Source of the DNA: Escherichia phage phiWec190
Sequence record: LC739539.1
Strand: one strand, 5' to 3'
Length of the DNA: 64,000 nucleotides
Below, piece by piece: positions 1 to 63,924 of this stretch (position 1 is the first letter of the stretch; the number at the start of each line of letters is the position of its first letter). The notes under the pieces were generated by a model. It saw only the letters and a list, made by a program, of their open reading frames with translations. It did not search any database and was not told the origin of the DNA. Position numbers and translations under genes: made by a program.

Positions 1-2361
1 CTTCTGCTCTTTCTCATCATCCACTTTAACCCAGCCCAAAGATTCTTTAGAGAACCATTTAAATTCTACCAGGTTACGAGATACTTCAAGCTGCGCTTCA
101 TCGTGGTAAGCAATCATTTGCTGAACGAAGTCTTTATTCTTCCAGTCATCAACGAAGAAGTCAACAGCCAAACCCTCCTCTTCGATCATATCGTCATAAA
201 TCACCATTGCACGTTTAGCACAGATAACCCCGCCACTTTGGAACAGTGAGTTTAAGATTGCATGTGCAGATCGTGTTGGTACTTTACGTCCATCAATACC
301 AAGAACATACTGCTTACCAGTGTTAACCCAGAAAGCATTCAACTTCTCTTTAAGTTGTGCTAACGGGAAAGCTGCTTCCCAGAATGCATCAAACACCAGT
401 TGCCCTGTGTACTTATCACTACCAATTGTCTTAGCAACCTTGTCTGCCTGTGCTCCATATGTAATCCCGTACTTAACAGATTTAGCTGGACTACGTTCAA
501 ACTTACGTCCAATAGTTTCTGTGATACGCCTTGCCATCATGGTATGAACATCGTTAGGCTTCTCTAACAAGAGGGCGTTACAGTATTCATGAGGCTCCGG
601 CTCGTAGCGCCAACAATAATGCGACTCAATCTTTGCTTCCAAGGAGTCAAAGTCATAACCGATCTGGAAGTAACGTGGTGTTTCTACCCCAAACAAGTTA
701 CGCATTTCGTACCCAAACAACGATGTAACGCGAGGAACGTTCGCAACAGAGCGATGCTTCATACGAGACGTTGCAGCGTCACACGTAGCCGCTGGAGTCG
801 ATATACGACCATCGGCACGAACTGCTGCTAAGAAGCCTTTATCGTATTCTTGATCTTCCTCATCGTCTTCCCAATCTGCACCACCGCCCAAAATAGAGTT
901 TCGACGATGTTTGTACGTCAGGTACTGCACAATCTGCGTGGCATACGGGAACTTCTCGCCCAGTGCTTCAAGATTAGGACAAATCTCTTTCTCCTGTCCC
1001 TTCGTGAAGCATGGGTTGGTCAGCACTTTAAGACCACGACCTTTCCCTTTAGCCAGACGTTCACGGATTCTAAGCTCCAATGTTTCAGCATCAGCTTGTA
1101 AGTGTTCGCAACGATCATTACAGAAGTTGCTTTCCAGAGTTTGTTTGACATAAGACAGAATACCTTTCTCTAAGTCGTCAGGATCTTTCTTGATCTTCGA
1201 ACCAGATTTAAGCGTCAAGTCTTTGTCTTTATATTCAGACGGAACCCAACCCAAACCTACAAGCCAGTTTTTAATGTGTGTCGTATCATTCAGTGTAGAC
1301 GGAATGGTAGGTTCACAAATAGGTTCTTCACTTGAGATCGGTAACTTAAACTCTTTATCTAAAACAAGCAGCCACCAATCACCTTCACGTTCTTCAAGGC
1401 TACCGCCATGTTTCTCCGCAAACCTGATGATATGGTTTGTTGGCTCACCGTTCTTCTTGATCTGAAGTTTCGGTGGAATAAAATCTTTCAGATAACCTTT
1501 AGTTGCTGGCTTAGGTGGAAGAATAGGCTCTACCAACAAACGTAGACGTTCCATTTCTTTGTCCAAGAATTCCAGGTTCTGTTCAGCTTGTTGCATGTTG
1601 AACTTAAAGCCACGGTGTTCTTGACGGGTGATGATATCCGCAATACGTTGCTCCAAGTCGAACGGCTCTTGCCACTTCTTATAATCACCCCATTCTTCCA
1701 TGAGGTAATAATATACTGCTGTAGTTGCCTTGTTGTCGTAGATACAGTAGTACAACATATCTGCGGCGAACGTCTTGAATCGCTCTCCTTCTGGAATCTC
1801 TTTACGGAAATCGATCTTAACATCCCCGCCAGCTTTTTTAGAAAGGGCGTTCAAGTTGTGTCCAGGTTTACCATCAACCTTGCGATCAGGGTTCAATACT
1901 TTACTAAGGATTAAGGTATCAATAATCTTAACTTTCGAATCACCCCAAGTGTTGTATTTAACGCTGTAATTCAGCCCGTAGTAAAGCTTAACTGCCAAGT
2001 GGTCATAGTTGATGCCGTTATGGGCTACAGCCATTTCTACGAGGTATTCAGGCTTATCTGCGAACTTACCTGTATGGTTGACAAAATCTGGAAAATCTGC
2101 CAGAGGGAAGTGTGTGTATTCCTGTGCCACATACTCCTTCAGTACATAAGTGTACTTACCGTCAGACTCTTCATAAGGACGACCATCGAAAATGTACTTA
2201 GGACCATCGTGAAAAGCAATGATCTCTCCTGTTTCGTGGTTTTCCAGACAAATACAATGCATACCAAAAGTGTCTTTCAATCGATAAGGGCTTGCCAGGT
2301 AATCAATTGTGTCATTGTTCAGTAATGCGGTTGCTTCAATATCCCATGTAAACTTACTCAT
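1..2361 (-). CDS. DNA polymerase, family A (Pol I/T7-like); about 787 codons in window, C-terminus beyond left edge
   Basis: Absent from ORF track (no stop inside window) but minus frame is open 2361->1. Hand translation starts MSKFTWDIEA, contains exo-like DTLILSKVL and Pol A-like DFDSLEAKIESHY and KSVKYGITYGAQADKVAKTIG. GGAGG RBS just upstream. Confidence 0.7.
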   Translation of the reverse strand, partial: MSKFTWDIEATALLNNDTIDYLASPYRLKDTFGMHCICLENHETGEIIAFHDGPKYIFDGRPYEESDGKYTYVLKEYVAQEYTHFPLADFPDFVNHTGKFADKPEYLVEMAVAHNGINYDHLAVKLYYGLNYSVKYNTWGDSKVKIIDTLILSKVLNPDRKVDGKPGHNLNALSKKAGGDVKIDFRKEIPEGERFKTFAADMLYYCIYDNKATTAVYYYLMEEWGDYKKWQEPFDLEQRIADIITRQEHRGFKFNMQQAEQNLEFLDKEMERLRLLVEPILPPKPATKGYLKDFIPPKLQIKKNGEPTNHIIRFAEKHGGSLEEREGDWWLLVLDKEFKLPISSEEPICEPTIPSTLNDTTHIKNWLVGLGWVPSEYKDKDLTLKSGSKIKKDPDDLEKGILSYVKQTLESNFCNDRCEHLQADAETLELRIRERLAKGKGRGLKVLTNPCFTKGQEKEICPNLEALGEKFPYATQIVQYLTYKHRRNSILGGGADWEDDEEDQEYDKGFLAAVRADGRISTPAATCDAATSRMKHRSVANVPRVTSLFGYEMRNLFGVETPRYFQIGYDFDSLEAKIESHYCWRYEPEPHEYCNALLLEKPNDVHTMMARRITETIGRKFERSPAKSVKYGITYGAQADKVAKTIGSDKYTGQLVFDAFWEAAFPLAQLKEKLNAFWVNTGKQYVLGIDGRKVPTRSAHAILNSLFQSGGVICAKRAMVIYDDMIEEEGLAVDFFVDDWKNKDFVQQMIAYHDEAQLEVSRNLVEFKWFSKESLGWVKVDDEKEQK

Positions 2362-2411
2362 TAGTCCTCCATATTATGTAACTCAACCTGAAGGGTATCA
2401 CATTCCTCAAT

Positions 2412-2433
2412 CAAAAGTCAAGAGGGGCTTGCG
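2412..2433 (-). other. GC hairpin (GGGGC-TTGC-GCCCC) between polymerase and primase-helicase genes
   Basis: Inverted repeat read directly; no clear U-run, so terminator role uncertain. Confidence 0.3.
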
Positions 2434-2444
2434 CCCCTTCTGAA

Positions 2445-4226
2445 TCAATACGCGCCTTCTGCACCACCTGCATTATCAGGGTTAGCAAAATACTGTGCTT
2501 TGTCGTGTAGCGTGGCAGTTTTAATATCGTAATAAAACTCCCCAGCCGGACCAGTTTCCGAAAATTCTCGGTTTTTGAGGATGTAGCACATAGTGGTGTT
2601 TCTCATAACGGGGTCTTCATGACTCTTATCTCGTTCCAGTGCCAGTGTAATACCTGCCCCTTTAGCCAAGAAGCTACTACCCATTGCATCATCTTCGGTT
2701 AAGTGCTCATTACCATTGTTCGCAGCTTTCTTAACATGGGAGATCACGATGATTGTAATGCCGTATTCTTTCATGATGCGCTTCAACCACGTTGCCAACT
2801 CTTCTTGTTCCTGAACACTCATCCCCGACAACAGATCCGAGTATGGGTCAATTACCAAGATGGTAATGCCAAAGTAGATAATCATCTCCAGCACCTTCTC
2901 CTTGATTGAATCAATGTCTGCACCACGGTCATCACAAACAAAGAAACGAGGAGAGCCATCTTCACGAACGTAGAAGTTATTAATAGCTTCCTTGTTCTCT
3001 TCCAGGATCGCAGCCTTTTCTTCCTTAGTCTTACGATGCAAAGGAATATGCAGGAACGAAGAAAGAAGGTTACGTGAGTATTTCTTATACGTTGCTTCCA
3101 GGGACAGAATACCCAACACATGTTCTGGATGGGCTACGATAATGTGTTTGGTGATCTCATTCACCATCAACGTCTTACCGATACTCGTTTTAGCCAGAAT
3201 AACTGTGATCTCTTCTTCTACCAGACCACCACCCAACATGTTCGCAGCAGTACGCATGAACGGAGGAAGGGTGATCACTTGTGCATCCAGACAGTCCATT
3301 GCAGCTTCATAGAGTTCGTTCGAAGCATAAACACCCGCTGGGGTATAAAGTTTTGCAGCCCAATAAGCCTTCACAAAATCTTTTGCTTTATCTTGCAACA
3401 GGTATTCATTGGCATCTTTCAGTTCCATCTTCATCAGGTAAACTTTATTACGAGGCAACACTTTTACAATGTTCTCAAAAGCTTCCTTACCTGCCTTATC
3501 ATTATCCATGCAGACGATGATCTTCTTGAACTTCTCAAAGAAAGGGTACTGTGCCTGTACCTGTTTATACATACTGGTTTCACCAGTTGTGCCACTAACT
3601 ACCGCTGGTAATTCATATTTTCTGTCAAGACCTTCTGCCAACATTTGATATGCTGCCAAGGCATCATGTTCACCACCAGTAATGATCACGGTGTGGGAAC
3701 GTTCAAGGAAACGAAATTGTCCAAACAAATCTACATCTTTACCTACTTGACCAATGGGCTTGGAGAAGTCTTTAGGATGGATACGACGCTTAAAACCTAC
3801 CAGTTCTTTACCGATAGTTGTTGGATACAAAGTATGTTCCACAACAACACCAGATTCTTCTTGTTTATACTGGTAACGAACACCGTAGAATTTAGAATAT
3901 TCTTCCTTGATCCCACGGTAGCCTCGTGGGTTAGTGCCTGTTTCTTCTACAATCTTACGATGAATCTCTTTATTAAATTCCGAACCCACAATATCCTCCT
4001 CTTCTTCTAAAACTTCACCATTCTCTCTTAACCATTCAACGCTGGGGATTGTGTACTCACACGCAAAGCATTTGGCTCCTTTATGCTCACCGTTAGAATC
4101 CAATCCATAAACCATCAGGTTATTACGAGAGCGATCCTTGCCATTTTTCATGCAGCGTGGACAGCCAGTGTGCCCTTCCCTGCTAAGATCAACATCAAAT
4201 CCATATTTCGTTATAATGTGTGTCAC
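2445..4226 (-). CDS. DNA primase-helicase (T7 gp4-like: Zn-ribbon + primase + DnaB-like helicase)
   Basis: 593 aa; N-terminal CPRC...CFAC zinc ribbon, central ITGGEHDALAAYQ, C-terminal Walker-A-like LAKTSIGKT. Confidence 0.7.
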   Translation of the reverse strand: MTHIITKYGFDVDLSREGHTGCPRCMKNGKDRSRNNLMVYGLDSNGEHKGAKCFACEYTIPSVEWLRENGEVLEEEEDIVGSEFNKEIHRKIVEETGTNPRGYRGIKEEYSKFYGVRYQYKQEESGVVVEHTLYPTTIGKELVGFKRRIHPKDFSKPIGQVGKDVDLFGQFRFLERSHTVIITGGEHDALAAYQMLAEGLDRKYELPAVVSGTTGETSMYKQVQAQYPFFEKFKKIIVCMDNDKAGKEAFENIVKVLPRNKVYLMKMELKDANEYLLQDKAKDFVKAYWAAKLYTPAGVYASNELYEAAMDCLDAQVITLPPFMRTAANMLGGGLVEEEITVILAKTSIGKTLMVNEITKHIIVAHPEHVLGILSLEATYKKYSRNLLSSFLHIPLHRKTKEEKAAILEENKEAINNFYVREDGSPRFFVCDDRGADIDSIKEKVLEMIIYFGITILVIDPYSDLLSGMSVQEQEELATWLKRIMKEYGITIIVISHVKKAANNGNEHLTEDDAMGSSFLAKGAGITLALERDKSHEDPVMRNTTMCYILKNREFSETGPAGEFYYDIKTATLHDKAQYFANPDNAGGAEGAY

Positions 4227-4238
4227 AATCCTCTCCTG

Positions 4239-4517
4239 TTAAAATGATTCGTTAGTTTCCATCATGTACGCGGCTTCTAATGCCTCCATATGTTTTTTGA
4301 ATTGGTATGCGATTTCTGTTACGGTCACGTTAATATCTTCCGCATCAAGTTGTTCCAGACCCGCATAGAAACGGATACCGTCGATCAGTAACCCACCGTG
4401 GTAATCCCAATCACTTTCCCGTGAGTGTGGATCAGGTTCTTCGTAGTAATAATCAACTTCCACCACAACATTAAAACCACTTTTCGTAGTGTACTCAAAA
4501 TCAAAAGTATTCAGCAT
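4239..4517 (-). CDS. hypothetical protein (acidic, 92 aa)
   Basis: ORF track; co-oriented and tightly packed; no recognisable motif. Confidence 0.45.
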   Translation of the reverse strand: MLNTFDFEYTTKSGFNVVVEVDYYYEEPDPHSRESDWDYHGGLLIDGIRFYAGLEQLDAEDINVTVTEIAYQFKKHMEALEAAYMMETNESF

Positions 4518-5467
4518 TATAGCTCCTCAAATAATAATCTACGGCGTTCATTCAGCACATCAATGTGATAATGCTTACGAACATATTTAGCTAAAGCCAA
4601 TCCCTTCTCGATCCCCACATCAGGTTCTTGGATCAGGTAATTAACAATATCTTCCCATTCACTTCTTGATTCTGCAAAGAACAGTAAATCCTTAAACTCT
4701 TCTGTGAAGTAATTCTCACGAGGAGAACAGACCAAAGGCAGACCCTTGGCACCAGCCTCCAGAATCTTAAGGTTACTTTTGGCGTTATTAAACAGGTTAT
4801 CGGTCAAAGGCGCAAGCATTATTTGATGACCATCATAAGATTCCATGTAGCTCTCATATGGTCTAACAGCCTCATAATTGCAGCTTGGAGCCACTTTTTC
4901 ACGTATGTCAGTCCATTGCTGACTACTTAGTACTTCACTATCTCTACGGAATCCGCAGATTGTTAAATCCCTTCCAAAATTCGGCAGTAGAGCTAAATCT
5001 TGTTTATGTGTTTCACTTCCAGCCCATACTATCGGTGATTTGGAATAGCGATCACGAGTTAACGTGAACTGATCCTCATCAAACGGTAAGCCATTTGGAA
5101 TAATATGTACGTTAGGATTGTACTGGGACAGTTCCACCTGGAGAGCAGGTGTTGTTGTCGTCACAAGATCACTACGTTCAAGAAACCATTGCAAGTCTTC
5201 TCGAATACCTGCATCAAAAATGTCTTCCAGCATGTGTCCTTGAGGAATGTTTAAGGAGTCATCCAAATCCATTACCATCTTAAAACCCATGCTCTTAAGG
5301 GCTATGAAACCTTGTTTCCCTTTTGTAGGGACACCGTTAAAGACATATACGTTCTGTGACGGTTGCGCCGAGAACTGCCTTGTGTAAGGCAGCATTACTC
5401 GGTGATAATCGCAGACACTATATTCTTTTCCAGCACGATTGTCAAGAATAATTTGTCCCATAGACAC
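4517..5467 (-). CDS. glycosyltransferase-like protein (GT-B-type), paralog A
   Basis: 316 aa; CDYHRV, LPFDEDQFTL and KSNLKILEAGAKGLPLV (E..A.G.P motif); clear paralog of 5468..6454. Confidence 0.5.
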   Translation of the reverse strand: MSMGQIILDNRAGKEYSVCDYHRVMLPYTRQFSAQPSQNVYVFNGVPTKGKQGFIALKSMGFKMVMDLDDSLNIPQGHMLEDIFDAGIREDLQWFLERSDLVTTTTPALQVELSQYNPNVHIIPNGLPFDEDQFTLTRDRYSKSPIVWAGSETHKQDLALLPNFGRDLTICGFRRDSEVLSSQQWTDIREKVAPSCNYEAVRPYESYMESYDGHQIMLAPLTDNLFNNAKSNLKILEAGAKGLPLVCSPRENYFTEEFKDLLFFAESRSEWEDIVNYLIQEPDVGIEKGLALAKYVRKHYHIDVLNERRRLLFEEL

Positions 5468-6454
5468 CTACAGACTTTCGATCACTTGACGACGCAATTC
5501 GTTTGCATCCTTCAAGTTGTAATGAGTACGAACATGTTCAGCCAAGAACAGTCCACGATCTTCACGGTAGTTTGGATTACGAAGTAGTTTTACAACTTCA
5601 TAGTGCCACTCTGCCTTGCTATCTGCGAAGGTTACTGCACGGGCATCGATCGGGTTGTAGTAAGGTAATACCTTAGAACAAACGATTGGAATACCTTTAG
5701 CACCAGCTTCTAATACTTTTAGGTTGCTCTTGCAATGGTTGAAGTCATTATCAACTAACGGAGCTACAGCCATAGCATGACCATCGTATGCAGACATATA
5801 ATCATTCAAAGAATCTACAGCAGGTTTATACTGCGCATTAGGCAAACTACGGCGGATCTTAACCCACTCTTGCCCTGTCACTGTGCTGCTCGCTTCATAC
5901 CCTGCGATAGACAACAGACTATCATCAAAAGTATTTGAAAGCAAACGTAGATCCGGTTCATGACTTGCACCTCCAGCCCAGATAATAGGCGTACCCGAAG
6001 TACGATCGTTCGACAGAGTGAACTGGTCATCATCGAACGGTAGAGCATTTCGGATCACAACAACATTAGAGTTTAAGTGACGAATTTTATATGCCAAGTA
6101 TTCTGTTGTCACGATAACCACATCTGCCAGTTTAACCATTTCCACAATGGTGCGGGTGTTTGGCGCGTACAGATGCGCCAGGTAGTGCTCTGGATTCAAC
6201 TGATAGAAATCATCCAAATCTACAACAATCTTAACACCTTGACGCTTAAGCTTTGCTACTTCGTCAGCACCTTTCGAGAAGATGCGATTAAAGACCAGTA
6301 CATCGGTACGTGGTTTTATCTCTACATTAGAAAACGGCATAACGACGCGATGATAATCACAACCACTGTTGAATTTGTTGTCACACAGTAGGGTGGGTTT
6401 TTTATTTAGCGCCATATCCTTCAGCCTCTTCAAAAGAGATGTGTGTTTTGCCAT
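5468..6454 (-). CDS. glycosyltransferase-like protein (GT-B-type), paralog B
   Basis: 328 aa; same three motifs as 4517..5467; true start may be the internal Met near 6415. Confidence 0.5.
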   Translation of the reverse strand: MAKHTSLLKRLKDMALNKKPTLLCDNKFNSGCDYHRVVMPFSNVEIKPRTDVLVFNRIFSKGADEVAKLKRQGVKIVVDLDDFYQLNPEHYLAHLYAPNTRTIVEMVKLADVVIVTTEYLAYKIRHLNSNVVVIRNALPFDDDQFTLSNDRTSGTPIIWAGGASHEPDLRLLSNTFDDSLLSIAGYEASSTVTGQEWVKIRRSLPNAQYKPAVDSLNDYMSAYDGHAMAVAPLVDNDFNHCKSNLKVLEAGAKGIPIVCSKVLPYYNPIDARAVTFADSKAEWHYEVVKLLRNPNYREDRGLFLAEHVRTHYNLKDANELRRQVIESL

Positions 6455-19801: not shown

Positions 19802-21333
19802 TATTTAGAAAGGAACTGTCGTCCCATCAGCTTACCACCTTTAACGGCAGTACCATCATGACCTTGGTAATCCCAAGAACCGTCGATGTTAGCTAAGAAG
19901 TTATCACGGTGTCCATTCTCTTCAATCACCACCGCGAGAAGCAGATTGCTGTCGATCTCGGAAACAACAGACTCAACAATACCTTCTGCAATATTACGCG
20001 CATATTGGATATACACTTTCTCGCCTGTAACCTGCACACTGTCCACATTCTTAAACATGTAGGTTTGTTGTGTGGTGTAGAGAATACGCACAACTGGCTT
20101 CTTGCCTACAGGAGGTTTTTGGCGAGTCTTGCGATAACGTGGTTTAGGTGCATATACCGGAGCAACCACATCATCTCGAACAGCCCCCACTTTAGCTACA
20201 CGCGGAACAATCATGTATTTCACCAGATCCCAATTATCAGGATGGTTCTCATCGACTCTCCAACCCATGTCGTCGGCTGGGCCTGTGAAAGTTTGCCCGT
20301 TACGGCAGACGATCTTCACGTAAGGATTACCCTCTGGAGGGAACCCAGGGTTCGGAAGGTATTCTTCCACATATTCTTCAACTTCAAAAGTATTCTCTTC
20401 CACTTCTTCTCCTTCTTTTGTTAAGTCAGCAATGATATCTTCCAATGATTTCTCGGTATTGTCAATACCTAAATGTTTCAAAAACATCTCGATAAATTCG
20501 TCAACACCTACTTTTGATCCTTGTGGAGAGTTGTGACCATCAATCCCCGACTTAGAACTATAAAAAGAGTAGTGTTCGGACAGACCACGACTGTAAGATA
20601 GGAAGTGTTCAGCATCTTTCCAATATCCTTCACCAGTAACTAAGCTGAAAATCTTTAAAAGAGACTCCACTTGACTTGTGGAGATCTTTCTGGTAGGTAC
20701 GCACACTTCGTGAATAGATCGCCCTGCCACTTTAGCTAAAATAAGATCTAACATTTCTTCTCCATCAATGATTTCTGGTTTTGTCCCTAAGCGTGGAATA
20801 TTTTCATAGGCGATAGAATCCACCCCTAAAACTTCAGAGAAAATAACAACGTCACGCCCACCACGTCCTTCTTCCCAAGCTTTTTGGAGTTGATCGGCAG
20901 TCCAACCATTACCGTAAAGTTCGGCTACAGCCGTATATAAGCGGGAGTTCCCGTCATACAGGCGACTTGCTGCCATACGAAGCGTATCCTTCATGCAGTA
21001 GTAGATAGGCTTCGAATCACACCAGGCTGTCTCCAAAAGCAGATCAATAAAATGTTCGGTAGTGGTAACAGAAGAAACACCTGCTGGCAGATAATCCTCG
21101 GAGTGTGTAGCATCAATACCATTAGACGGATCAAAGAACAAAAACCCTGTCTCTGCGCCTACATCATTACGAAAATCTTCTTCGTTGTCCCACGGACCTT
21201 GCTGAATCTGCTCGCAAAGATCATAGATCTTGGTAAACTCTGCATCTGTCAGGTCTTCTGTGTGGACATAATATTTAACCAATTCTTCCATCGACTTATT
21301 CATAAATAAACCCCTCTCTGTGGTTAAGAGCAA
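19801..21333 (-). CDS. large hypothetical protein (510 aa)
   Basis: ORF track; no motif recognised by eye. Confidence 0.55.
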   Translation of the reverse strand: MLLTTERGLFMNKSMEELVKYYVHTEDLTDAEFTKIYDLCEQIQQGPWDNEEDFRNDVGAETGFLFFDPSNGIDATHSEDYLPAGVSSVTTTEHFIDLLLETAWCDSKPIYYCMKDTLRMAASRLYDGNSRLYTAVAELYGNGWTADQLQKAWEEGRGGRDVVIFSEVLGVDSIAYENIPRLGTKPEIIDGEEMLDLILAKVAGRSIHEVCVPTRKISTSQVESLLKIFSLVTGEGYWKDAEHFLSYSRGLSEHYSFYSSKSGIDGHNSPQGSKVGVDEFIEMFLKHLGIDNTEKSLEDIIADLTKEGEEVEENTFEVEEYVEEYLPNPGFPPEGNPYVKIVCRNGQTFTGPADDMGWRVDENHPDNWDLVKYMIVPRVAKVGAVRDDVVAPVYAPKPRYRKTRQKPPVGKKPVVRILYTTQQTYMFKNVDSVQVTGEKVYIQYARNIAEGIVESVVSEIDSNLLLAVVIEENGHRDNFLANIDGSWDYQGHDGTAVKGGKLMGRQFLSK

Positions 21334-35010: not shown

Positions 35011-35210
35011 AAATGAGAATTATTCTCACTTAAAATCGAAATACGAATGAGAATGATAATGATTCTCATTTAACATGGTAAATACGAATGATTCGCATTC
35101 AATAGCGTAAATGAGATTTATTCTCACCTTGCGAATGAGATTGATTCTCATTCAACTATCCAAATAAGATTGATTTTTATTCAATAAGGTAAATGATAAT
35201 CATTCTCATT
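35011..35210. repeat. array of about 7 imperfect palindromes resembling Fur-box hexamer repeats
   Basis: AATGAGAAT-n-ATTCTCATT type units about every 30 bp, e.g. GAATGAGAATGATAATGATTCTCATT and AATGATAATCATTCTCATT. Confidence 0.55.
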
Positions 35211-35471
35211 TAGAGAATGACGGGCAGGTCCGGTGATTATCTCGCGCTCCCGTGTCCCCTCGCCATGTAATAAGAATAACAGATCCAGCCAGGAAAGCAA
35301 GCGATTATTTTATCTTTACATTTCTTTACAAATATATAGCGCCCAGCCTCCCGGCGATCGACCTTCCAACCGGTGCCCCTGGTATGTTAGCCCCGCCTTT
35401 ACGCCGTGGGGGGTGGCGCTTCCTCTTCTGTATGTAAAACAGTATAAGCCCGATCCCTGGGCTTGTCAAGA

Positions 35472-41654: not shown

Positions 41655-41939
41655 ATGGTTAAAGCTAACACGGTGCTACTGTTTTCCCTGGTTAATGATG
41701 CCGCTTACTTGTCCAACATGACGCAAGATGATAGCACATTAACGGCAACGTTTACCGATGGACTTAACCGAGTGATCATCGTTTCACTGAAAACAGGGAG
41801 TAAAGGCTTTTACTCGTTGGCTTATCATTGGGTAACAGACAGCGACGAGACAAGCCAGGACTATAGCGCCCCGTTCCCTGAATCAATGGCACGGGAGATC
41901 ATCGCCGCCGTTGTAAACGATGGTTTATTTACTGCATAA
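41655..41939 (+). CDS. hypothetical protein (94 aa)
   Basis: Track ORF trimmed to MVKANTV... Confidence 0.45.
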   Translation: MVKANTVLLFSLVNDAAYLSNMTQDDSTLTATFTDGLNRVIIVSLKTGSKGFYSLAYHWVTDSDETSQDYSAPFPESMAREIIAAVVNDGLFTA

Positions 41940-41958
41940 AAATAATTTAGAAAAAGGT

Positions 41959-42020
41959 TTGCAATCATTTTGAGATAGTGTATATTTAATTCATAGGGCG
42001 GCGGGAATAGTTCCCAAAGC
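41959..42020 (+). promoter_or_regulatory. cassette promoter plus leader stem-loop (copy 14)
   Basis: TTGCAA 41959-64, 16 nt, TATATT, leader CATAGGGCGGCGGGAATAGTTCCC. Confidence 0.5.
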
Positions 42021-42038
42021 AAGCGAGAGGATAACACA

Positions 42039-42158
42039 ATGAACAAATACACAGTAGAATACACGGTAGAGAATCCGGCAGTATCCGAAGGGCGTAAGAC
42101 TACGATCGCCGTTGGTGTTATCGCTTTCGTTATCACTATCTTATCAATCATCTTATAA
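42039..42158 (+). CDS. micro-ORF membrane peptide (39 aa)
   Basis: Hand-read MNKYTVEYTVENPAVSEGRKTTIAVGVIAFVITILSIIL; C-terminal TM helix. Confidence 0.4.
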   Translation: MNKYTVEYTVENPAVSEGRKTTIAVGVIAFVITILSIIL

Positions 42159-42168
42159 GGTGCACACC

Positions 42169-42348
42169 ATGAAAACAGTAAACGTTATCAGATCATCAAA
42201 CATCATTAAAGAGATCGCCCTTGCCACTGGTATTGAGATCGAGGAAGTGATCGCGCTCAATCTTACAGAAAACGATCTGCGCAACTATGAAGCGGAAAGC
42301 GTGAAAGCAAGTGGCGCGGTCCTGGCATATAATCCGGCTAACAAATAG
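42169..42348 (+). CDS. small hypothetical protein (59 aa)
   Basis: In-frame tail of track ORF 42112..42348 from MKTVNV... Confidence 0.4.
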   Translation: MKTVNVIRSSNIIKEIALATGIEIEEVIALNLTENDLRNYEAESVKASGAVLAYNPANK

Positions 42349-42428: not shown

Positions 42429-42707
42429 ATGACCATCGTTAAATTAACAACCGAAGAAATGAAAACAATGTTAACCACTAATTTACAAAATTGGAAAATT
42501 GGTGTTGACGTTGAAACAGTGTGCAAGTTGAACGACAAACTAACACCGGACGACATTGAAACGATCATCCGTGCAGATTTCTATGATGCTTTATACGATG
42601 ATTCCACAGTCCTTGAAACGATGTTGGATAACGCTTGGATCAATCCCGATTTGGCGGCTTATGGTCATCTTGCCTTTGAAGCCATCCATAATGTTTATAA
42701 TCGTTAA
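42429..42707 (+). CDS. hypothetical protein (92 aa)
   Basis: ORF track. Confidence 0.5.
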   Translation: MTIVKLTTEEMKTMLTTNLQNWKIGVDVETVCKLNDKLTPDDIETIIRADFYDALYDDSTVLETMLDNAWINPDLAAYGHLAFEAIHNVYNR

Positions 42708-42717
42708 GGGGGATAAC

Positions 42718-42849
42718 ATGAATCCGAAAGATATGCAAGCATGGAAAGGGTACGACGATCTAAGCGCCTTGCGCAATAAGTCAAGCCGTAACCTTAGACG
42801 GTTGGAAGCAAAGAAAAAGAAAAATATTAAGGGGGTGCACCATGTATAA
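42718..42849 (+). CDS. small basic protein (43 aa)
   Basis: In-frame tail of track ORF 42556..42849 from MNPKDMQAWKGY..., RBS AAGGGGG. Confidence 0.35.
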   Translation: MNPKDMQAWKGYDDLSALRNKSSRNLRRLEAKKKKNIKGVHHV

Positions 42850-43069
42850 CAATATCATTGCAGATCGTGCCGCTACTATTCGCCCAGGAGATCGGGCGCG
42901 TTTACAGGTTGGCGTTTATCCGTTCCCGTCTTATGACTTCTGCAAGGTAACGGCTATCGAAAACAATCCGTTTGATCCTGACACCGTGATCATCTGGTAC
43001 GAAGGAAGGGGAAACAGATATGAAGATATCTTGGGGCGTGATGAATCCGTAAACATTTTACGCTATTAA
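42842..43069 (+). CDS. small hypothetical protein (75 aa)
   Basis: ORF track. Confidence 0.45.
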   Translation: MYNNIIADRAATIRPGDRARLQVGVYPFPSYDFCKVTAIENNPFDPDTVIIWYEGRGNRYEDILGRDESVNILRY

Positions 43070-43202
43070 CAGCCTGTAAGCTGTACGGCTGTATTACAGC
43101 CTAAAAGGTGTAAGGCAATGCAATCCCCTACCTGATTTAATTAGTGCGCCCTGGCTTATACTGGGGCGTTATACATTGTAGAAAATAATTTTAAAAATAT
43201 GC

Positions 43203-43263
43203 TTGACGCCTGGAACGTTGGCGCGTATAGTTTATCACATAGGGCGGCGGAATGGTCCACCGC
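43203..43263 (+). promoter_or_regulatory. cassette promoter plus leader stem-loop (copy 16)
   Basis: TTGACG 43203-08, 17 nt, TATAGT, leader CACATAGGGCGGCGGAATGGTCCACCGC. Confidence 0.6.
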
Positions 43264-47896: not shown

Positions 47897-47924
47897 GGGG
47901 CGCACTAAGCGCCCTTTCTTTTTG
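47897..47924 (+). terminator. strong rho-independent terminator closing the array
   Basis: GGGGCGC-ACTAA-GCGCCC then TTTCTTTTTG. Confidence 0.7.
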
Positions 47925-48039
47925 TCCAAATAATGTTGATAGCTTCCGCCTATGAAAAACCGACACAGAACAAAAATGAATAAATCGCGGTATCGAGCTA
48001 ATCAACCAGCAAACGAATAACCATACCTCCCAGGGCAAC

Positions 48040-48420
48040 AGGCTGTTAGAGAGCTATTTAGAGCGGTTAAAATCGATCAACAACCAACAACAAACAACCG
48101 AAAAAGGCTGTTTTCCTCCTTTCCAGTGCAATGATAACCATTATCATCTAACCTTGCGTATCTATGCAATATAAGTGCATAACTATAATGTTGATAATAG
48201 TTCGCAACAACTAACCAACCAACAACCTAAAACAATAAGCAAACTAATCATAATCAAAGGAATAATAGAAAGATGATTGATAACGACAAACAATCAAACC
48301 ATGATGAATACTAAGCAAGATAACGATAACACGACAAAACAACCAACTAACTAACGATAACAAATGAAATCATTAAAATAACAACTATTAGTAAAATAGT
48401 GCCTATTGCCGAAATAGTGA
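48040..48420. repeat. A+C-rich, G-poor low-complexity tract with CAACAA/ACGATAAC-type short repeats
   Basis: Read directly: strong strand compositional skew, no plausible ORF. Confidence 0.5.
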
Positions 48421-48463
48421 AGACTGTAATAATTGTAAAATGAATCATTCCAAGCCTCATCAT

Positions 48464-48496
48464 TAGCACGCTACGCCGGACACGTAGCGAGCTAAT
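48464..48496. repeat. 13-bp-arm hairpin/palindrome
   Basis: TTAGCACGCTACG-CCGGACA-CGTAGCGAGCTAA (one mismatch). Confidence 0.5.
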
Positions 48497-48560
48497 AATA
48501 AGCCAACTACACCCCCACAATCATAACTATCGGTGATAGTTATTTCTTGTGATTATGTAG

Positions 48561-48577
48561 CTTGCAATTATTGCAAG
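48561..48577. repeat. perfect 17-bp palindrome CTTGCAATTATTGCAAG
   Basis: Read directly. Confidence 0.55.
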
Positions 48578-48655
48578 CGTATTACGCTTACACTAATTAC
48601 GCTGGCTTATTATTAGCATTGTATGTAAGAATAGTTAAGCGTAATATAATAATCA

Positions 48656-48670
48656 ATGTAATTATTACAT
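48656..48670. repeat. perfect 15-bp palindrome ATGTAATTATTACAT
   Basis: Read directly. Confidence 0.55.
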
Positions 48671-48913
48671 GAGTTATCACTATCGTTCAGTGTGATCATC
48701 ATTAGCATGGTGAAGGATTAGCACGTAGCAACATGAGCGAATAGCGACAGGTTGCATAGTGTACAGATATACAGAAAGATGAAAGATAAAGGCTTAATGT
48801 TTGCGGGGGAAAGATAGCCGCCTATGGCGGATATGTTGAGCACGTTCTCTTAAACGTAAATAAAATCAGAAAAATCTTGATTTATTGGTCGATTTGTTGT
48901 AAGAATTGTCTGA

Positions 48914-48932
48914 ATAATAATCATTCTCATTT
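48914..48932. repeat. Fur-box-like palindrome copy
   Basis: AATAATAATCATTCTCATT, same unit as 35011-35210 array. Confidence 0.5.
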
Positions 48933-49083
48933 ATTTTATAGGTAGTCTGTTATGGGCGGCACCTTTACACCGTAGTAATCATATGTTTAGGTTGTTAAGT
49001 AGTTGATTGATAAAGGATTGTTTAAAAAGTAGTGCTTAAGTTAGGCCCAACCTTATAGCAGGGGAAAAGATCGCCTAAGTTAT

Positions 49084-49116
49084 TGAATGCGAATGATAAT
49101 GATAATTATTCTCATT
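49084..49116. repeat. Fur-box-like palindrome copy
   Basis: GAATGCGAATGATAATGATAATTATTCTCATTG. Confidence 0.5.
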
Positions 49117-49462
49117 GATATTTGAAGATTCCGGCGCGCAGAAGTGGAGGGGCCGGAAAATTCGCGTTCAGCAGTCCTGACGTACTCGCCATAAATCCTT
49201 GCTACCAAAGGCTTTTCTGTCTCTTTGCCGATGATATTCTTGCCGATAAATCGCAGGAACAGAGGGTATCGAAATAATCTCTCCCCCCAGATATTTTGCC
49301 GATTAATATTTGACCAAAGGGGTGTCAAAAATAACAGGTATATATGGAATAATTGATAGGGAATACCAATGATAAATGAATTGTAATTGCCGAGGATTGA
49401 TCGTAAGATGTTCCTCGTTGAGAGTTACGATGTTTGTCATGAAACCAAGAGAGGAGATTATC

Positions 49463-61082: not shown

Positions 61083-61465
61083 AAAACATTCGTGTGAAGT
61101 TTCTTGCCTCTAAGTTTATTAATGTCCGAGACTATTTGACCATAGGTCGGATTTACAACGCCAAAGTAGCAGATGAGAACTGTTTCATTGTCGTGGATGA
61201 TGAAGGATCTGAACTCTATTGTTTGTTCGAGAATTGCAGCTACGGAGTGTGGCAAGTTATGTCGGAAGAAGCTGAAAAGAAAGCGAGTGGAATGTGTATC
61301 CCAGAAGGGTATGTCTTGGTCCCGAAAGAGCCTACCCCAGAAATGTTGGAGGCAGCGAAGGACTGGACGGGGCTAACCCGAACAGCCGAAGTTGTCTATA
61401 AGTCGATGATCGCGGCTTCGCCGCTTATTGGAAAAGGGGGAGGGGAAGAAAATGAGGTCAAGTGA
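61079..61465 (+). CDS. hypothetical protein (128 aa)
   Basis: ORF track. Confidence 0.5.
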   Translation: MKNIRVKFLASKFINVRDYLTIGRIYNAKVADENCFIVVDDEGSELYCLFENCSYGVWQVMSEEAEKKASGMCIPEGYVLVPKEPTPEMLEAAKDWTGLTRTAEVVYKSMIAASPLIGKGGGEENEVK

Positions 61466-61796
61466 AGCTTTACTGGAATTTTATGAGTGGTGGTTGGATC
61501 AGGCTATGAGCCAAGATCCGAACGAAAACATCAAAGCTTGCGGTTTGTGTCATGCAGTGGAAGTGTATTGCGGGGAAGACCAAGATTTGTATCTTTCCCT
61601 CTCTGATGAAATGGTAGAGCAGTTTGAAGCGGAAGGTTTAGAATGGAACTATCCGTTCGATGGCGAGTGGGATCTGTCAGGTTGGATTCCTTGTTATTGG
61701 ATTGAGAAGAAGTCCGGCACCCAACACAAAAACTTCGATCGTCTTGCTTGGGTGTATGACCGTCTGGAGGAGGTGCAGCATGGCGAAGAAGAATAA
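61452..61796 (+). CDS. family X, member 7 (divergent)
   Basis: Track ORF trimmed to MRSSEALLEFYEWWLD...CGLCHAV...YPFDG...FDRLAWV. Confidence 0.5.
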   Translation: MRSSEALLEFYEWWLDQAMSQDPNENIKACGLCHAVEVYCGEDQDLYLSLSDEMVEQFEAEGLEWNYPFDGEWDLSGWIPCYWIEKKSGTQHKNFDRLAWVYDRLEEVQHGEEE

Positions 61797-62034
61797 AATG
61801 GGGCATAGTCAAGAGGGAGAACCGCACTATTTACACCCGTTTGACCCCAAAAACAAGGCAACGATTCATCGTCAATGGGTTGAGACACGTATGACAAAGT
61901 GTCCGATCCCAGCAGCGGAGCAATACAACAAAAAGTATACAGCGGAGTTCATAGAATACACTTTCATCAATAACAAAGGTAAAGAGGTTTACGTTGAAGA
62001 AATGATTCTGTGGATCAAATGGGAGGATGTATGA
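61780..62034 (+). CDS. small hypothetical protein (84 aa)
   Basis: Track ORF trimmed to MAKKNKMGH... Confidence 0.4.
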   Translation: MAKKNKMGHSQEGEPHYLHPFDPKNKATIHRQWVETRMTKCPIPAAEQYNKKYTAEFIEYTFINNKGKEVYVEEMILWIKWEDV

Positions 62035-62237
62035 GTTTTCAAACTTTCTTTAATCTGTTATTGATGTTGGTCTTTTTTGGATTTCTGATCCTCTTTGCTA
62101 ATGCGGTATCAGACGTGCAGAATGAGCAGATAGCCCTTAAAGAACAATGCACCGTTTGGAAACAGGAAAAAGATGCCAATAAATTCCTTGACAATAACTG
62201 CTTCAAGTTTGTAAAATGGAATCCTGATAACGATTGA
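62031..62237 (+). CDS. small protein with N-terminal membrane anchor
   Basis: Track ORF trimmed to MSFQTFFNLLLMLVFFGFLILFANA... Confidence 0.4.
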   Translation: MSFQTFFNLLLMLVFFGFLILFANAVSDVQNEQIALKEQCTVWKQEKDANKFLDNNCFKFVKWNPDND

Positions 62238-62247
62238 GGAGTTGATC

Positions 62248-62922
62248 ATGAAAAAGTTTGTTGTTTACAGCCGTTTGTCTAAACAGAAGAAAGGTGAAGC
62301 CCAGTATGGTATGCAGAGCCAGGAAAACGATATCCGTTATTTCTTGGAATCTGTGCCGGAGGCTGAAGTGATCGGAGAGTTTTCTGAATTTTATTCAGGT
62401 AAAGGCGACTGGAAGCAACGTAAAGAACTTGTCAAGGCTGTTGAGATGTGTAAAGCTACAGGAGCAACGCTTTTGGTAGCTAAAGTGGACCGTTTAGGTC
62501 GTAACAACGCCTCGGTAGCAATCCTCTTGGAAATGATTGACGTTAAGATTGCGATCATGCCGGATGCAGACAAGATGGTTATTCAGCTTCTATCTGTCCT
62601 TGCAGAACAGGAAGTACGTGGTATGGCAGATCGTATCAAAAAAGGTTTGGCAGTAGCTAAGAGCAAAGGTATTCTCTTAGGATCTGCATCTCCAAAATAT
62701 AAAGAGTCTCGTAAAGATTACAGACAATCTCGAAAAAATGATAAAAGCACCTTGTATGCCGAGAAGCTTCGTGATAAAGTTACGTTAATGAGGAAAGCAG
62801 GAGCATCTCTGACTCGAATCGCAGAGATCTTTACTGAAGAGAAAATTGAAACTGTTCGTGGCAGTACCACATGGCACCCTTATACGGTTCAACGTCTGCT
62901 TAACAAACTGAACATTAAATAG
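62248..62922 (+). CDS. serine recombinase (resolvase/invertase family)
   Basis: VVYSRLSKQKKG (Y.R.S..Q with catalytic-Ser position), LLVAKVDRLGRN, LLSVLAEQEVRGMADRIKKGLAVAKSKG, C-terminal HTH-like tail. Confidence 0.75.
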   Translation: MKKFVVYSRLSKQKKGEAQYGMQSQENDIRYFLESVPEAEVIGEFSEFYSGKGDWKQRKELVKAVEMCKATGATLLVAKVDRLGRNNASVAILLEMIDVKIAIMPDADKMVIQLLSVLAEQEVRGMADRIKKGLAVAKSKGILLGSASPKYKESRKDYRQSRKNDKSTLYAEKLRDKVTLMRKAGASLTRIAEIFTEEKIETVRGSTTWHPYTVQRLLNKLNIK

Positions 62923-62930
62923 GAGCTAAA

Positions 62931-63260
62931 ATGACAAAGAACGAAGTGATTATCCAACAATTTCTTAAGGCATGGTTAGCCTGGGCTGAAGTGGCTCCGA
63001 AAAGAGAGAATGTCAAACCCTTCAGCACACTTGTTGGGCTTTGCGACTCTTTGTCTTACTGGTTACTGGAACAAGGGTTTTCATTAAAAGAAATTGACGA
63101 AGTTACCGAAGCATTTGCAGAAATGCTTTTCAAAGATTTCCAAGACACCTTGTACCCATTTGGTGACTTAGCTTATATGCAGGATTATGAGCACGGCACG
63201 CAACATATGAACAAAGAACGGTTGGCATGGGTTAAATCAAAACTGAAAGGGGGTAAATAA
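62931..63260 (+). CDS. family X, member 8 (divergent)
   Basis: FLKAWLAWAEVAP...LVGLCDSL...YPFGD...NKERLAWV. Confidence 0.5.
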   Translation: MTKNEVIIQQFLKAWLAWAEVAPKRENVKPFSTLVGLCDSLSYWLLEQGFSLKEIDEVTEAFAEMLFKDFQDTLYPFGDLAYMQDYEHGTQHMNKERLAWVKSKLKGGK

Positions 63261-63262
63261 CA

Positions 63263-63592
63263 ATGAGTGCAATTCTACAAGAACTCTATTTTAACATTGT
63301 GGTTGTTGCTGTAGCGGTATGTGTCATAGGAAGCATCTACGCCTTAGACCGCACTTTTAAGAAGCGTAACAAACATCAAAAACTCTCCTACAATACGGTT
63401 TTTGTGTACAACTACAGGCCGAGGGAGGGTAAGAGTCTGGGTGTGGGGAATATTGATGTACAATTTACAAATTGGCCTCCCACTCTGGATGATATTCGGG
63501 AAGTAGAGACTCAAATTAACGATACTTATGATTATAACGGTGTAGTTATGATCAACATCCTTCCAGTATCCAAAAACAAGGAGAAAACATGA
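63263..63592 (+). CDS. membrane-anchored hypothetical protein (109 aa)
   Basis: N-terminal TM helix ILQELYFNIVVVAVAVCVIGSIYAL. Confidence 0.45.
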   Translation: MSAILQELYFNIVVVAVAVCVIGSIYALDRTFKKRNKHQKLSYNTVFVYNYRPREGKSLGVGNIDVQFTNWPPTLDDIREVETQINDTYDYNGVVMINILPVSKNKEKT

Positions 63593-63924
63593 CAGAATAT
63601 GGAGTAATGAGTGATTTTGAAATCAACAAGCGTGTGTTTGCAGCAGTCCACGGTGTCAAGCCTTTAGGTTATCCGCACAATGCAGATGGACGATCAGTGG
63701 GAAATGACTGCAACGGCAATTACACTTGGTATGATTACTGCAATGATCCAGCAGATGCTTGGGCTATCATAGTAAAACACAGGATTTGTATCAGTCCTGT
63801 AACAGGGGAAGATGGTTTTCCTCGCGGTTGGCTTGCGAAAACAGAAGGTGTACCGTCCCGTGGAGACGATAAGCCCCTGCGTGCAGCTATGATTGTATTT
63901 TTAATGAAACTCGATCGTTCTTGA
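63589..63924 (+). CDS. hypothetical protein (111 aa), tentatively NinX-like
   Basis: WYDYCNDPADAWAIIVKHRICISPV recalls NinX-type phage proteins; unverified. Confidence 0.4.
   Translation: MTEYGVMSDFEINKRVFAAVHGVKPLGYPHNADGRSVGNDCNGNYTWYDYCNDPADAWAIIVKHRICISPVTGEDGFPRGWLAKTEGVPSRGDDKPLRAAMIVFLMKLDRS

Follow-up and report, generated by a model that had tools for sequence, protein, structure and literature searches.

The recombinase gene and its product

The stretch of DNA analysed here (the window) comprises 64,000 nt of Escherichia phage phiWec190 (sequence record LC739539.1). At positions 62,248-62,922 it carries a gene that, to judge by its sequence and predicted fold, encodes a small serine recombinase. 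The gene and its parts are listed below, with the evidence for each in brackets.

62,238-62,243, + strand: ribosome-binding site GAGGAG, about 4-6 nt 5' of the ATG (read from the sequence)
62,248-62,922, + strand: serine recombinase coding sequence, 224 amino acids (aa) plus stop (open reading frame, Pfam Resolvase, PHROG 125, AlphaFold2 model, GenBank coding sequence)
62,248-62,670, + strand: predicted catalytic domain with E-helix, aa 1-141, E-helix aa 109-139 (Pfam, DSSP of the model, Foldseek)
62,278-62,280, + strand: codon TCT of Ser11, the predicted nucleophile (aligned with S10 of gamma-delta resolvase and Hin)
62,673-62,751, + strand: variable linker or arm, aa 142-168 (differences from phiWec179, low model confidence)
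62,692-62,907, + strand: predicted C-terminal helical DNA-binding domain, aa 149-220 (PF07508 and HTH_62 matches, SPbeta profile alignment, helices of the model)

The open reading frame (ORF) is on the + strand, with its ATG at 62,248 and the end of its stop codon at 62,922. The same start is annotated in GenBank record LC739537.1, where the product (BDU13296.1) is named 'hypothetical protein'. The ribosome-binding site starts right after the TGA stop of the preceding gene, as in a translationally packed operon, and the intergenic gaps around the gene are 10 nt upstream and 8 nt downstream.

The Pfam family Resolvase (PF00239) matches residues 5-141 with an E-value of 1.7e-16 (61 bits, for a cutoff of 23.3 bits), and it matches 39 of the 39 members of the recombinase family. 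The profile of PHROG 125 is aligned to residues 1-223 (E 1.5e-31); its label, 'DNA invertase', is an annotation and not a function shown by experiment. The profile of PHROG 95, labelled 'integrase', is aligned to residues 1-219 (E 7e-20). The best sequence matches in the PDB are the Tn3 and gamma-delta resolvases, Sin and Gin, and the family profile matches Tn3 resolvase with an E-value of 3e-13 and Sin with 3.2e-13. A first-pass annotation, made from the letters of the window, had recognized a small serine recombinase in this ORF from three N-terminal motifs. All of them are present: YSRLSKQ (aa 7-13), VDRLGRN (aa 80-86) and the E-helix-like LLSVLAEQEVRGMADRIKKG (aa 115-134). The position of the ORF and its identity are confirmed by the agreement of the Pfam, PHROG and PDB matches with the catalytic residues.

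In an alignment that includes Hin, residues R9, S11, D81, R82 and R85 correspond to R8, S10, D67, R68 and R71 of gamma-delta resolvase. These five residues are invariant among 14 family members (32-74% identity), gamma-delta resolvase and Hin, and they are still invariant in the 39-member family alignment, which reaches down to 30 per cent identity. The catalytic serine and arginines, on which the first identification depended, are therefore in place. An AlphaFold2 model built on the 39-member alignment has a mean predicted local distance difference test score (pLDDT) of 87.8, with strands at 2-10, 39-48 and 74-77 and a long E-helix at 109-139 (DSSP). The top Foldseek matches of the model are the catalytic domains of Sin, gamma-delta resolvase, TP901-1, Bxb1 and the SPbeta integrase. 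For Sin, gamma-delta resolvase and TP901-1 the Foldseek probability is 1.0; the Bxb1 and SPbeta integrases give the longest alignments.

More specific assignments were not obtained. The NCBIfam equivalogs YneB, XisF and Mpi score below their cutoffs (33.9, 30 and 17.3 bits versus 175, 375 and 272). The catalytic domain begins at residue 2, and there is no N-terminal MerR-like helix-turn-helix (HTH) of the IS607 type. The PADLOC and anti-defence libraries have no match to the protein. We conclude that the gene almost certainly encodes a catalytically competent small serine recombinase, as predicted from the alignments and the model.

A protein that has been domesticated into a non-recombining DNA-binding factor, regulatory or architectural, is extremely improbable. 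The invariance of the nucleophile and of the catalytic Arg and Asp residues over deep divergence would be unexpected if catalysis were dispensable. Such a protein would agree with the failure to find a substrate site (see below), and resolvases such as those of Tn3 and gamma-delta are known to repress their own promoters as well.

The window is 99.95-100% identical, in reverse complement, to Escherichia phage phiWec188 (LC739537.1). The whole phiWec188 record was assembled (149,831 bp) and used for genome-wide comparisons. Phage phiWec188 belongs to the Stephanstirmvirinae, which are virulent, and is filed under Phapecoctavirus; a genus 'Wecvirus' has been proposed (PMC12695924). Genomes of this subfamily have short direct repeats at their ends. 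Such repeats are annotated in phi92 (343 bp) and BME3 (342 bp), and homology to them places the equivalent region at about 48,839-49,169 of the window, with boundaries at the conserved motifs TGTTGAGC.. and ..AAAATTCGCGTT, and this region is predicted to represent the physical genome ends. On this mapping, the recombinase gene lies about 13.4 kb from the left physical end. The run of small same-strand genes that contains it begins at 49,376, and this long run bears out the setting first described, among small early genes of a lytic phage.

Domain architecture

Four helices are present in the C-terminal part of the model (149-173, 175-183, 188-197 and 211-220), and the linker at 142-168 has the lowest pLDDT of the model (63-74). 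Positions 13-50 of the 102 positions of PF07508 ('Recombinase') align to residues 181-219 with a sub-threshold E-value of 0.012. PF07508 is matched by 17 of the 39 family members (best E 2e-7) and HTH_62 ('recombinase-like HTH') by two of the 39. Positions 111-217 of the family profile align to residues 135-245 of the SPbeta integrase (E 7e-4). There is no match to HTH_7, the domain of Hin and the resolvases, in the C-terminus, and none to a zinc-ribbon domain in the 224-aa protein.

Judged by these profile matches, the tail resembles the helical segment with which the 'Recombinase' domain of large serine recombinases begins, and not the HTH of Hin and the resolvases. The HTH-like tail of the first-pass annotation is thus retained as a predicted helical DNA-binding tail, but its kinship is with PF07508 and not with HTH_7. 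In architecture the protein corresponds to roughly the first 220 residues of a large serine recombinase and ends before the remainder of the Recombinase domain, before the zinc ribbon and before the coiled coil. It is not peculiar to this phage. An exhaustive phmmer search of 1.84 billion representatives yielded 2163 cluster representatives at E<=1e-10, and most of the best 150 matches are 214-250 aa long and aligned over their full length. This class of proteins of about 225 aa, in which a resolvase-type catalytic domain is followed by a short helical DNA-binding domain, is widespread and common in metagenomes.

The Tn3 and gamma-delta resolvases and Sin are of similar size (approx. 185-225 aa) and have the catalytic domain, the E-helix and the catalytic residues in common with the phage protein. 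Unlike the Tn3 and gamma-delta resolvases, the phage recombinase does not end in HTH_7. Those resolvases have a multi-subsite (three-subsite) res site by the gene and belong to a transposon or plasmid, whereas the phage gene has neither and its neighbours are phage early genes. The phage protein also has a deletion of about 10 residues before the E-helix, relative to gamma-delta resolvase and Hin.

The large serine integrases (Bxb1, SPbeta SprA, A118 and phiC31) resemble the phage protein in the tail, which is homologous to the start of their Recombinase domain and carries the common PF07508 motif IA..LN..gi.T.RG..W....V.RLL. They are 400-700 aa long, whereas the phage protein has 224 aa and possesses neither the full Recombinase domain nor the zinc ribbon nor the coiled coil by which directionality is set. 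The integrases work with attP and attB sites and in lysogeny; the phage gene is found in a virulent subfamily and has neither an attP nor a candidate for a recombination directionality factor.

Distribution and change of locus

A tblastn search with the recombinase protein matched 162 phage records. The identity is 98-100% in the phiWec phages and PsgM04F, 74 per cent in phAPEC8-like phages, 55 per cent in phi92-like phages, 51 per cent in Klebsiella Stephanstirmvirinae, 37 per cent in Shewanella and Vibrio myoviruses and about 33 per cent in some ICP1 isolates. All close homologues are on phage contigs of about 150 kb, and several of those in relatives are labelled DNA invertase, resolvase or serine recombinase in GenBank. 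The phi92 protein gp053 and its orthologues in the Stephanstirmvirinae are true homologues of equal length, with 55-100% identity. There are 106 Escherichia-phage records each for the recombinase, the tail module and the terminal non-coding element; the numbers are equal by count, not record by record, and are consistent with a recombinase that is universal in the Stephanstirmvirinae. The divergence of the recombinase broadly tracks phage taxonomy. Bacterial homologues have 25-39% identity and lie in varied contexts, for example by an IS3-type transposase or a tape-measure gene. We found no experimental work on this gene family in the Stephanstirmvirinae in the literature.

The ratio of non-synonymous to synonymous substitution rates (dN/dS) is 0.035 in comparison with phiWec179. 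There are 51 nucleotide changes and five amino acid changes, the latter all within the linker 142-168. The ratio is 0.16 in comparison with ESCO13 and 0.06 for phi92 versus a Klebsiella phage, with dS near saturation. The substitution pattern indicates that the recombinase is under strong purifying selection.

The gene does not occupy the same locus throughout the subfamily. In phi92 and the Klebsiella phage phi1_175008, it is flanked by gp054 and gp052 within a gene block that runs PhoH - HslV-like - methyltransferase - ... - phosphatase - DprA-like, and in Shewanella phage 1/4 it lies between the HslV-like and the DprA-like genes. Phage phiWec188 carries the whole PhoH-DprA-like block, collinear and with 67-78% identity for most genes. 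The slot itself (record positions 91,728-92,187) consists there of a gp054-like gene, 64 nt and a gp052-like gene, a clean absence of the single gene. Positions 91,932-92,187 of the record (41,932-42,187 in our locus L003) comprise the 64-nt gap, which holds a terminator-like hairpin, and after it the gp052-like ORF, which BLAST misses at 1e-3 and which shares the motif VLIxxxxDxWxVSY with gp052 of phi92. The phiWec188 recombinase is part of the left-end early operon instead, and ESCO13 and the phAPEC8-like phages likewise have it in the early operon; the phi92 and Klebsiella orthologues in the PhoH-HslV-...-DprA-like block have a promoter of their own. The phiWec188 recombinase is 55 per cent identical to the phi92 copy, a value below that of its old neighbour genes (67-78%). 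This comparison points to a single event in the ancestry of Phapecoctavirus and the phiWec phages, in which the recombinase either moved or was lost and then regained from a relative.

A sigma70-like promoter is found in the gap 5' of the recombinase in phi92, the Shewanella phage, a Vibrio phage and ICP1, and this fits early expression. The recombinase is thus predicted to be a conserved, early-expressed gene of the virulent Stephanstirmvirinae. A conserved downstream partner was sought and rejected: the short ORFs that follow the gene in the Shewanella, Vibrio and ICP1 phages bear no relation to one another. Nor does gp052 travel with the recombinase, since its counterpart sits at the empty slot of phiWec188. 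In ICP1 isolate 2017_DRC_82 (1,745-5,857 of our locus L077), a 251-aa homologue is encoded in a block of genes without earlier 'GP' names, near a putative homing endonuclease (GP28). This block looks like a variable cassette region.

These data bear on whether the gene is mobile. That the recombinase was retained despite the change of locus speaks for a selected function rather than a recent insertion, with some scope left for mobility at the level of the gene. The proposal of the first-pass annotation that the gene may mark a mobile insertion does not agree with its presence throughout the Stephanstirmvirinae and in Vibrio and Shewanella phages, with its purifying selection or with a divergence that broadly follows taxonomy; the gene has, all the same, changed position once between genera. 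A stronger version is a selfish, self-mobilizing single-gene element that persists by movement and not by benefit to the phage. The clean presence or absence of the single gene at the phi92-type locus (gp054, promoter, recombinase and gp052 in phi92 and the Klebsiella phage) would fit such an element, as would the move of the gene into the early region of Phapecoctavirus and phiWec phage genomes, the lower conservation of the gene relative to its old neighbours, a break of similarity beside it between phiWec188 and ESCO13, and the bacterial homologues found beside an IS3-type transposase or in phage-like contexts. We nevertheless consider a selfish element decidedly improbable: there is a single copy per genome and one relocation in the whole subfamily, neither flanking repeats nor a duplicated target are seen, the divergence broadly follows taxonomy, and every member sampled has the gene, unlike homing-type genes with their sporadic occurrence.

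Search for recombination sites

When the 149,831-bp genome was compared with itself by BLAST, only four inverted matches of at least 20 bp appeared, and these correspond to one sigma70 promoter and three intrinsic terminators. A scan of the window for palindromes (11-nt arms, at most one mismatch, spacer of 0-8 nt) found 6, versus 7-10 in shuffled sequences. The first-pass annotation had seen no inverted repeats in the immediate flanks, and this is confirmed, the gaps being only 10 nt and 8 nt long. Three regions were compared by megablast with 50,697 phage records in search of strand-switched segments, the verdict resting on the best-matching relatives. The 25-kb tail and tail-fibre module is on one strand and in one piece in all 60 best records, with no inversion. 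The 25 kb around the recombinase is collinear in the best-matching relatives and contains no strand-switched segment, and the same is true of positions 27,000-51,900 of the window, which include the early cassette array and the terminal repeat.

A DNA invertase acting on a distant segment, for instance to switch tail fibres and host range as Gin, Cin and Hin do, was among the possibilities first raised for this gene. Gin of Mu and Cin of P1 are phage-borne DNA invertases. The Hin/Gin/Cin/Pin enzymes are of the same superfamily, and homologues of the phage gene are called 'DNA invertase' both in PHROG 125 and in several GenBank records. The Stephanstirmvirinae have many tail fibres, and the order of the tail-fibre genes varies within the phiWec188 group (PMC12695924). 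We could not link this variation to an inversion. The known invertases have an invertible segment with inverted crossover sites of about 26 bp, usually by the gene; for the phage recombinase neither was found, its gene is not adjacent to tail-fibre genes, the phage is virulent and the C-terminal domain differs. The family profile is no nearer to Gin than to Tn3 resolvase. The only longer inverted matches in the genome are the promoter and the terminators, and the best-matching relatives are collinear in the tail module, around the gene and in the terminal region. A distant invertible segment is thus largely refuted at the level of the assembly, and we regard an invertase as very improbable. 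No resolvable segment was found in the genome either, and the functions suggested along with the first identification are not upheld.

Several other candidate sites were rejected. A res-like or operator site 5' of the recombinase in relatives was considered, and the upstream gaps hold sigma70-like promoters instead; in the Klebsiella phage the -10 region is covered by a 25-bp palindrome, which phi92 does not share. As for a recombination site in the terminal repeat, the conserved blocks proved to be Fur-box-like 9-1-9 palindromes, which recur at 35.0-35.2 kb and would therefore be hazardous as crossover sites. An approximately 800-bp difference between the window and the GenBank record was considered as a resolvase product. 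Ordinary homology or microhomology accounts for it, because the junction falls within promoter and leader sequence that is conserved in the neighbouring early cassettes.

There is no recurrent inverted-repeat architecture in the contexts of the bacterial homologues. Two near-perfect palindromes with 20-nt arms were observed in individual cases. One is in Rhabdobacter roseus (locus L040, 5,849-5,890), with a spacer of 2 nt, about 110 bp 5' of the homologue, and the other in Pontibacter humidus (locus L033, 5,385-5,431), with a spacer of 7 nt, about 570 bp 5' of the homologue. They are possible recombination or operator sites for those bacterial enzymes.

Possible function

The chemistry of recombination can be deduced with high confidence by analogy with the superfamily. 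Dimers would bind short dyad-symmetric sites, and two sites would synapse in a tetramer. Ser11 would attack the four strands, giving 2-nt 3' overhangs and 5'-phosphoserine links, and one half of the tetramer would turn by 180 degrees before religation of the strands.

The substrate is a more difficult question. We consider it unlikely that the gene is a recent mobile insertion or that its product is an invertase or integrase. Our preferred explanation as a whole is that of an active recombinase that resolves or cyclizes phage DNA, and we put it forward tentatively. The component of this explanation that concerns the substrate, namely that the enzyme acts on the phage's own DNA in a resolution- or cyclization-type reaction, is possible but somewhat doubtful. 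The recombinase would act early in infection at short phage sites in direct orientation, and the outcome would be resolution, deletion or cyclization of the terminally repeated or concatemeric genome. A role of the SKA64 orthologue in keeping concatemers as single genomes has been suggested as a speculation without data (PMC10282059), the one published statement on the matter that we found. A functional analogy, and nothing closer, can be drawn with Cre/loxP of P1, which cyclizes terminally redundant DNA and resolves multimers; no equivalent site was found for the phage recombinase. Cre is a tyrosine recombinase of a temperate plasmid-prophage and acts at a defined lox site.

A number of observations weigh against resolution or cyclization of phage DNA. 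There is no res-like region beside the recombinase, and none could fit there because the flanking gaps are only 10 and 8 nt long. Dyad sites with a spacer of even length are absent from the terminal repeat region; the conserved palindromes there have spacers of odd length (9-1-9 or 9-3-9), are operator- or hairpin-like and, because of this spacing, are unsuited to a 2-bp staggered crossover. A site-specific resolvase is not obviously needed by phages with terminal repeats whose DNA is packaged by a terminase. The Vequintavirinae give no tblastn match to the recombinase even though they have neighbour genes in common with these phages (the phi92 annotations cite PVP-SE1 homologues). Finally, the gene block and the homing endonuclease that accompany the ICP1 homologue suit an accessory or arms-race gene better than a role in replication.

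This last point leads to a different target, outside the phage genome. The recombinase might serve early host takeover or counter-defence by cutting or recombining a specific site, be it in the chromosome of the host, in a prophage or satellite, or in a competitor that infects the same cell. Its position among small early genes is typical of takeover functions, and in relatives it has its own sigma70-like promoter. The ICP1 homologue is present in some isolates only, in the non-'GP' gene block beside the homing endonuclease, and a site in the phage's own DNA was found neither by genome comparison nor by the palindrome scan. Serine-recombinase chemistry is used in the conflict between phages and satellites, as with Adi of ICP1 and the PLE integrase (PMC9638900). 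This support is indirect, and no family of the PADLOC or anti-defence libraries is matched. The conservation of the gene across phages of E. coli, Klebsiella, Vibrio and Shewanella would moreover require a conserved or co-evolving target in each. A non-phage target is in our view rather unlikely.

In a strictly virulent lineage with terminal repeats, a minimal serine recombinase might have a job new to its enzyme class, either the cyclization or processing of the genome at its terminal region or the early cutting or rearrangement of host or competitor DNA. Such a novelty is unlikely, though worth considering. Together, the readings discussed here leave a remainder for some other role.

Gene neighbourhood

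Genes around the recombinase are listed below.

61,452-61,796, + strand: phrog_2510 paralogue, upstream (motif GTQH.N..RLAWV)
62,031-62,237, + strand: small membrane-like ORF of 68 aa, upstream (context)
62,931-63,260, + strand: phrog_2510 paralogue, directly downstream (motif GTQH.N..RLAWV)

The 68-aa membrane-like ORF also adjoins the recombinase in Phapecoctavirus (76% identity in ESCO13). A phrog_2510 paralogue lies on either side of the recombinase; another one is encoded past the end of the window (locus L001, 16,090-16,443), and ESCO13 has three copies in the same area. A homologue of NinX of P22 (PF10765, E 4e-12; phrog_444) is encoded at 63,589-63,924, three genes 3' of the recombinase.

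Non-coding terminal region and early cassettes

The non-coding gap at 47,920-49,376 contains a structured element of about 155 nt (48,462-48,617), approximately 220 nt inside the left boundary of the region equivalent to the terminal repeat. The element is found in 132 Stephanstirmvirinae records with about 80 per cent identity. It has seven helices with 53 pairs, and 94 per cent of cells are paired. Compensatory double changes are present in 11 pairs, versus 1-2 in slid controls, and the covariation score is 0.23, versus 0.02-0.04 in these controls. A perfect hairpin is inserted in phi92-type phages, and one IMG/VR contig has, in the same place, a hairpin of wholly different sequence that is still paired. 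There is no match in Rfam. Single-sided changes on the + strand (A.C and C.A) would be G.U on the - strand, which hints weakly at an RNA of the minus strand. The element could be a non-coding RNA or a packaging or replication signal; a link to the recombinase is not shown.

Palindromes similar to the E. coli Fur box (GATAATGATAATCATTATC) are located at 35,046-35,070, 35,189-35,212 and 49,095-49,113, with weaker ones at 48,130-48,154 and 48,913-48,937. At up to three mismatches, four matches are observed, where 0.04 are expected. They lie in two non-coding regulatory regions, and one of them, in the most conserved 50-bp block of the terminal repeat, is common to phi92, BME3 and the Klebsiella phages as well. 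These palindromes may be operators for the host Fur protein or for a phage regulator.

Early-gene cassettes are arrayed over about 35.5-47.9 kb, where direct repeats of 20-60 bp are numerous. Relative to the GenBank phiWec188 sequence, the window has one extra cassette of about 800 bp (42,434-43,232) with two small ORFs (42,429-42,707 and 42,842-43,069). The junction lies in the conserved promoter, 5' hairpin and leader (..TATCACATAGGG..AACAGAAGAGA..ATCATGAC) that precede each small early gene. Positions 20,076-20,223 of the window correspond to an exact 148-bp duplication at both ends of LC739537.1 (1-148 and 149,684-149,831). In all likelihood this duplication arose as an overlap in the assembly; the true terminal repeat maps to another place.

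Significance

The identification of the recombinase changes little by itself, as the orthologues in phi92, ESCO13 and other phages already carry labels and the architecture is common in metagenomes. It has a practical side. The Stephanstirmvirinae have been proposed for therapy, and automated screens flag genes named 'recombinase' or 'integrase'; our analysis indicates that this recombinase is not an integrase and does not signal lysogeny. The puzzle lies in an intact recombinase that is held under a dN/dS of 0.035 and was kept through a change of locus, in phages with no known need for site-specific recombination. If its site were found, it would reveal the job of orphan recombinases in virulent phages, and it might give a compact, accessory-free recombinase for engineering.

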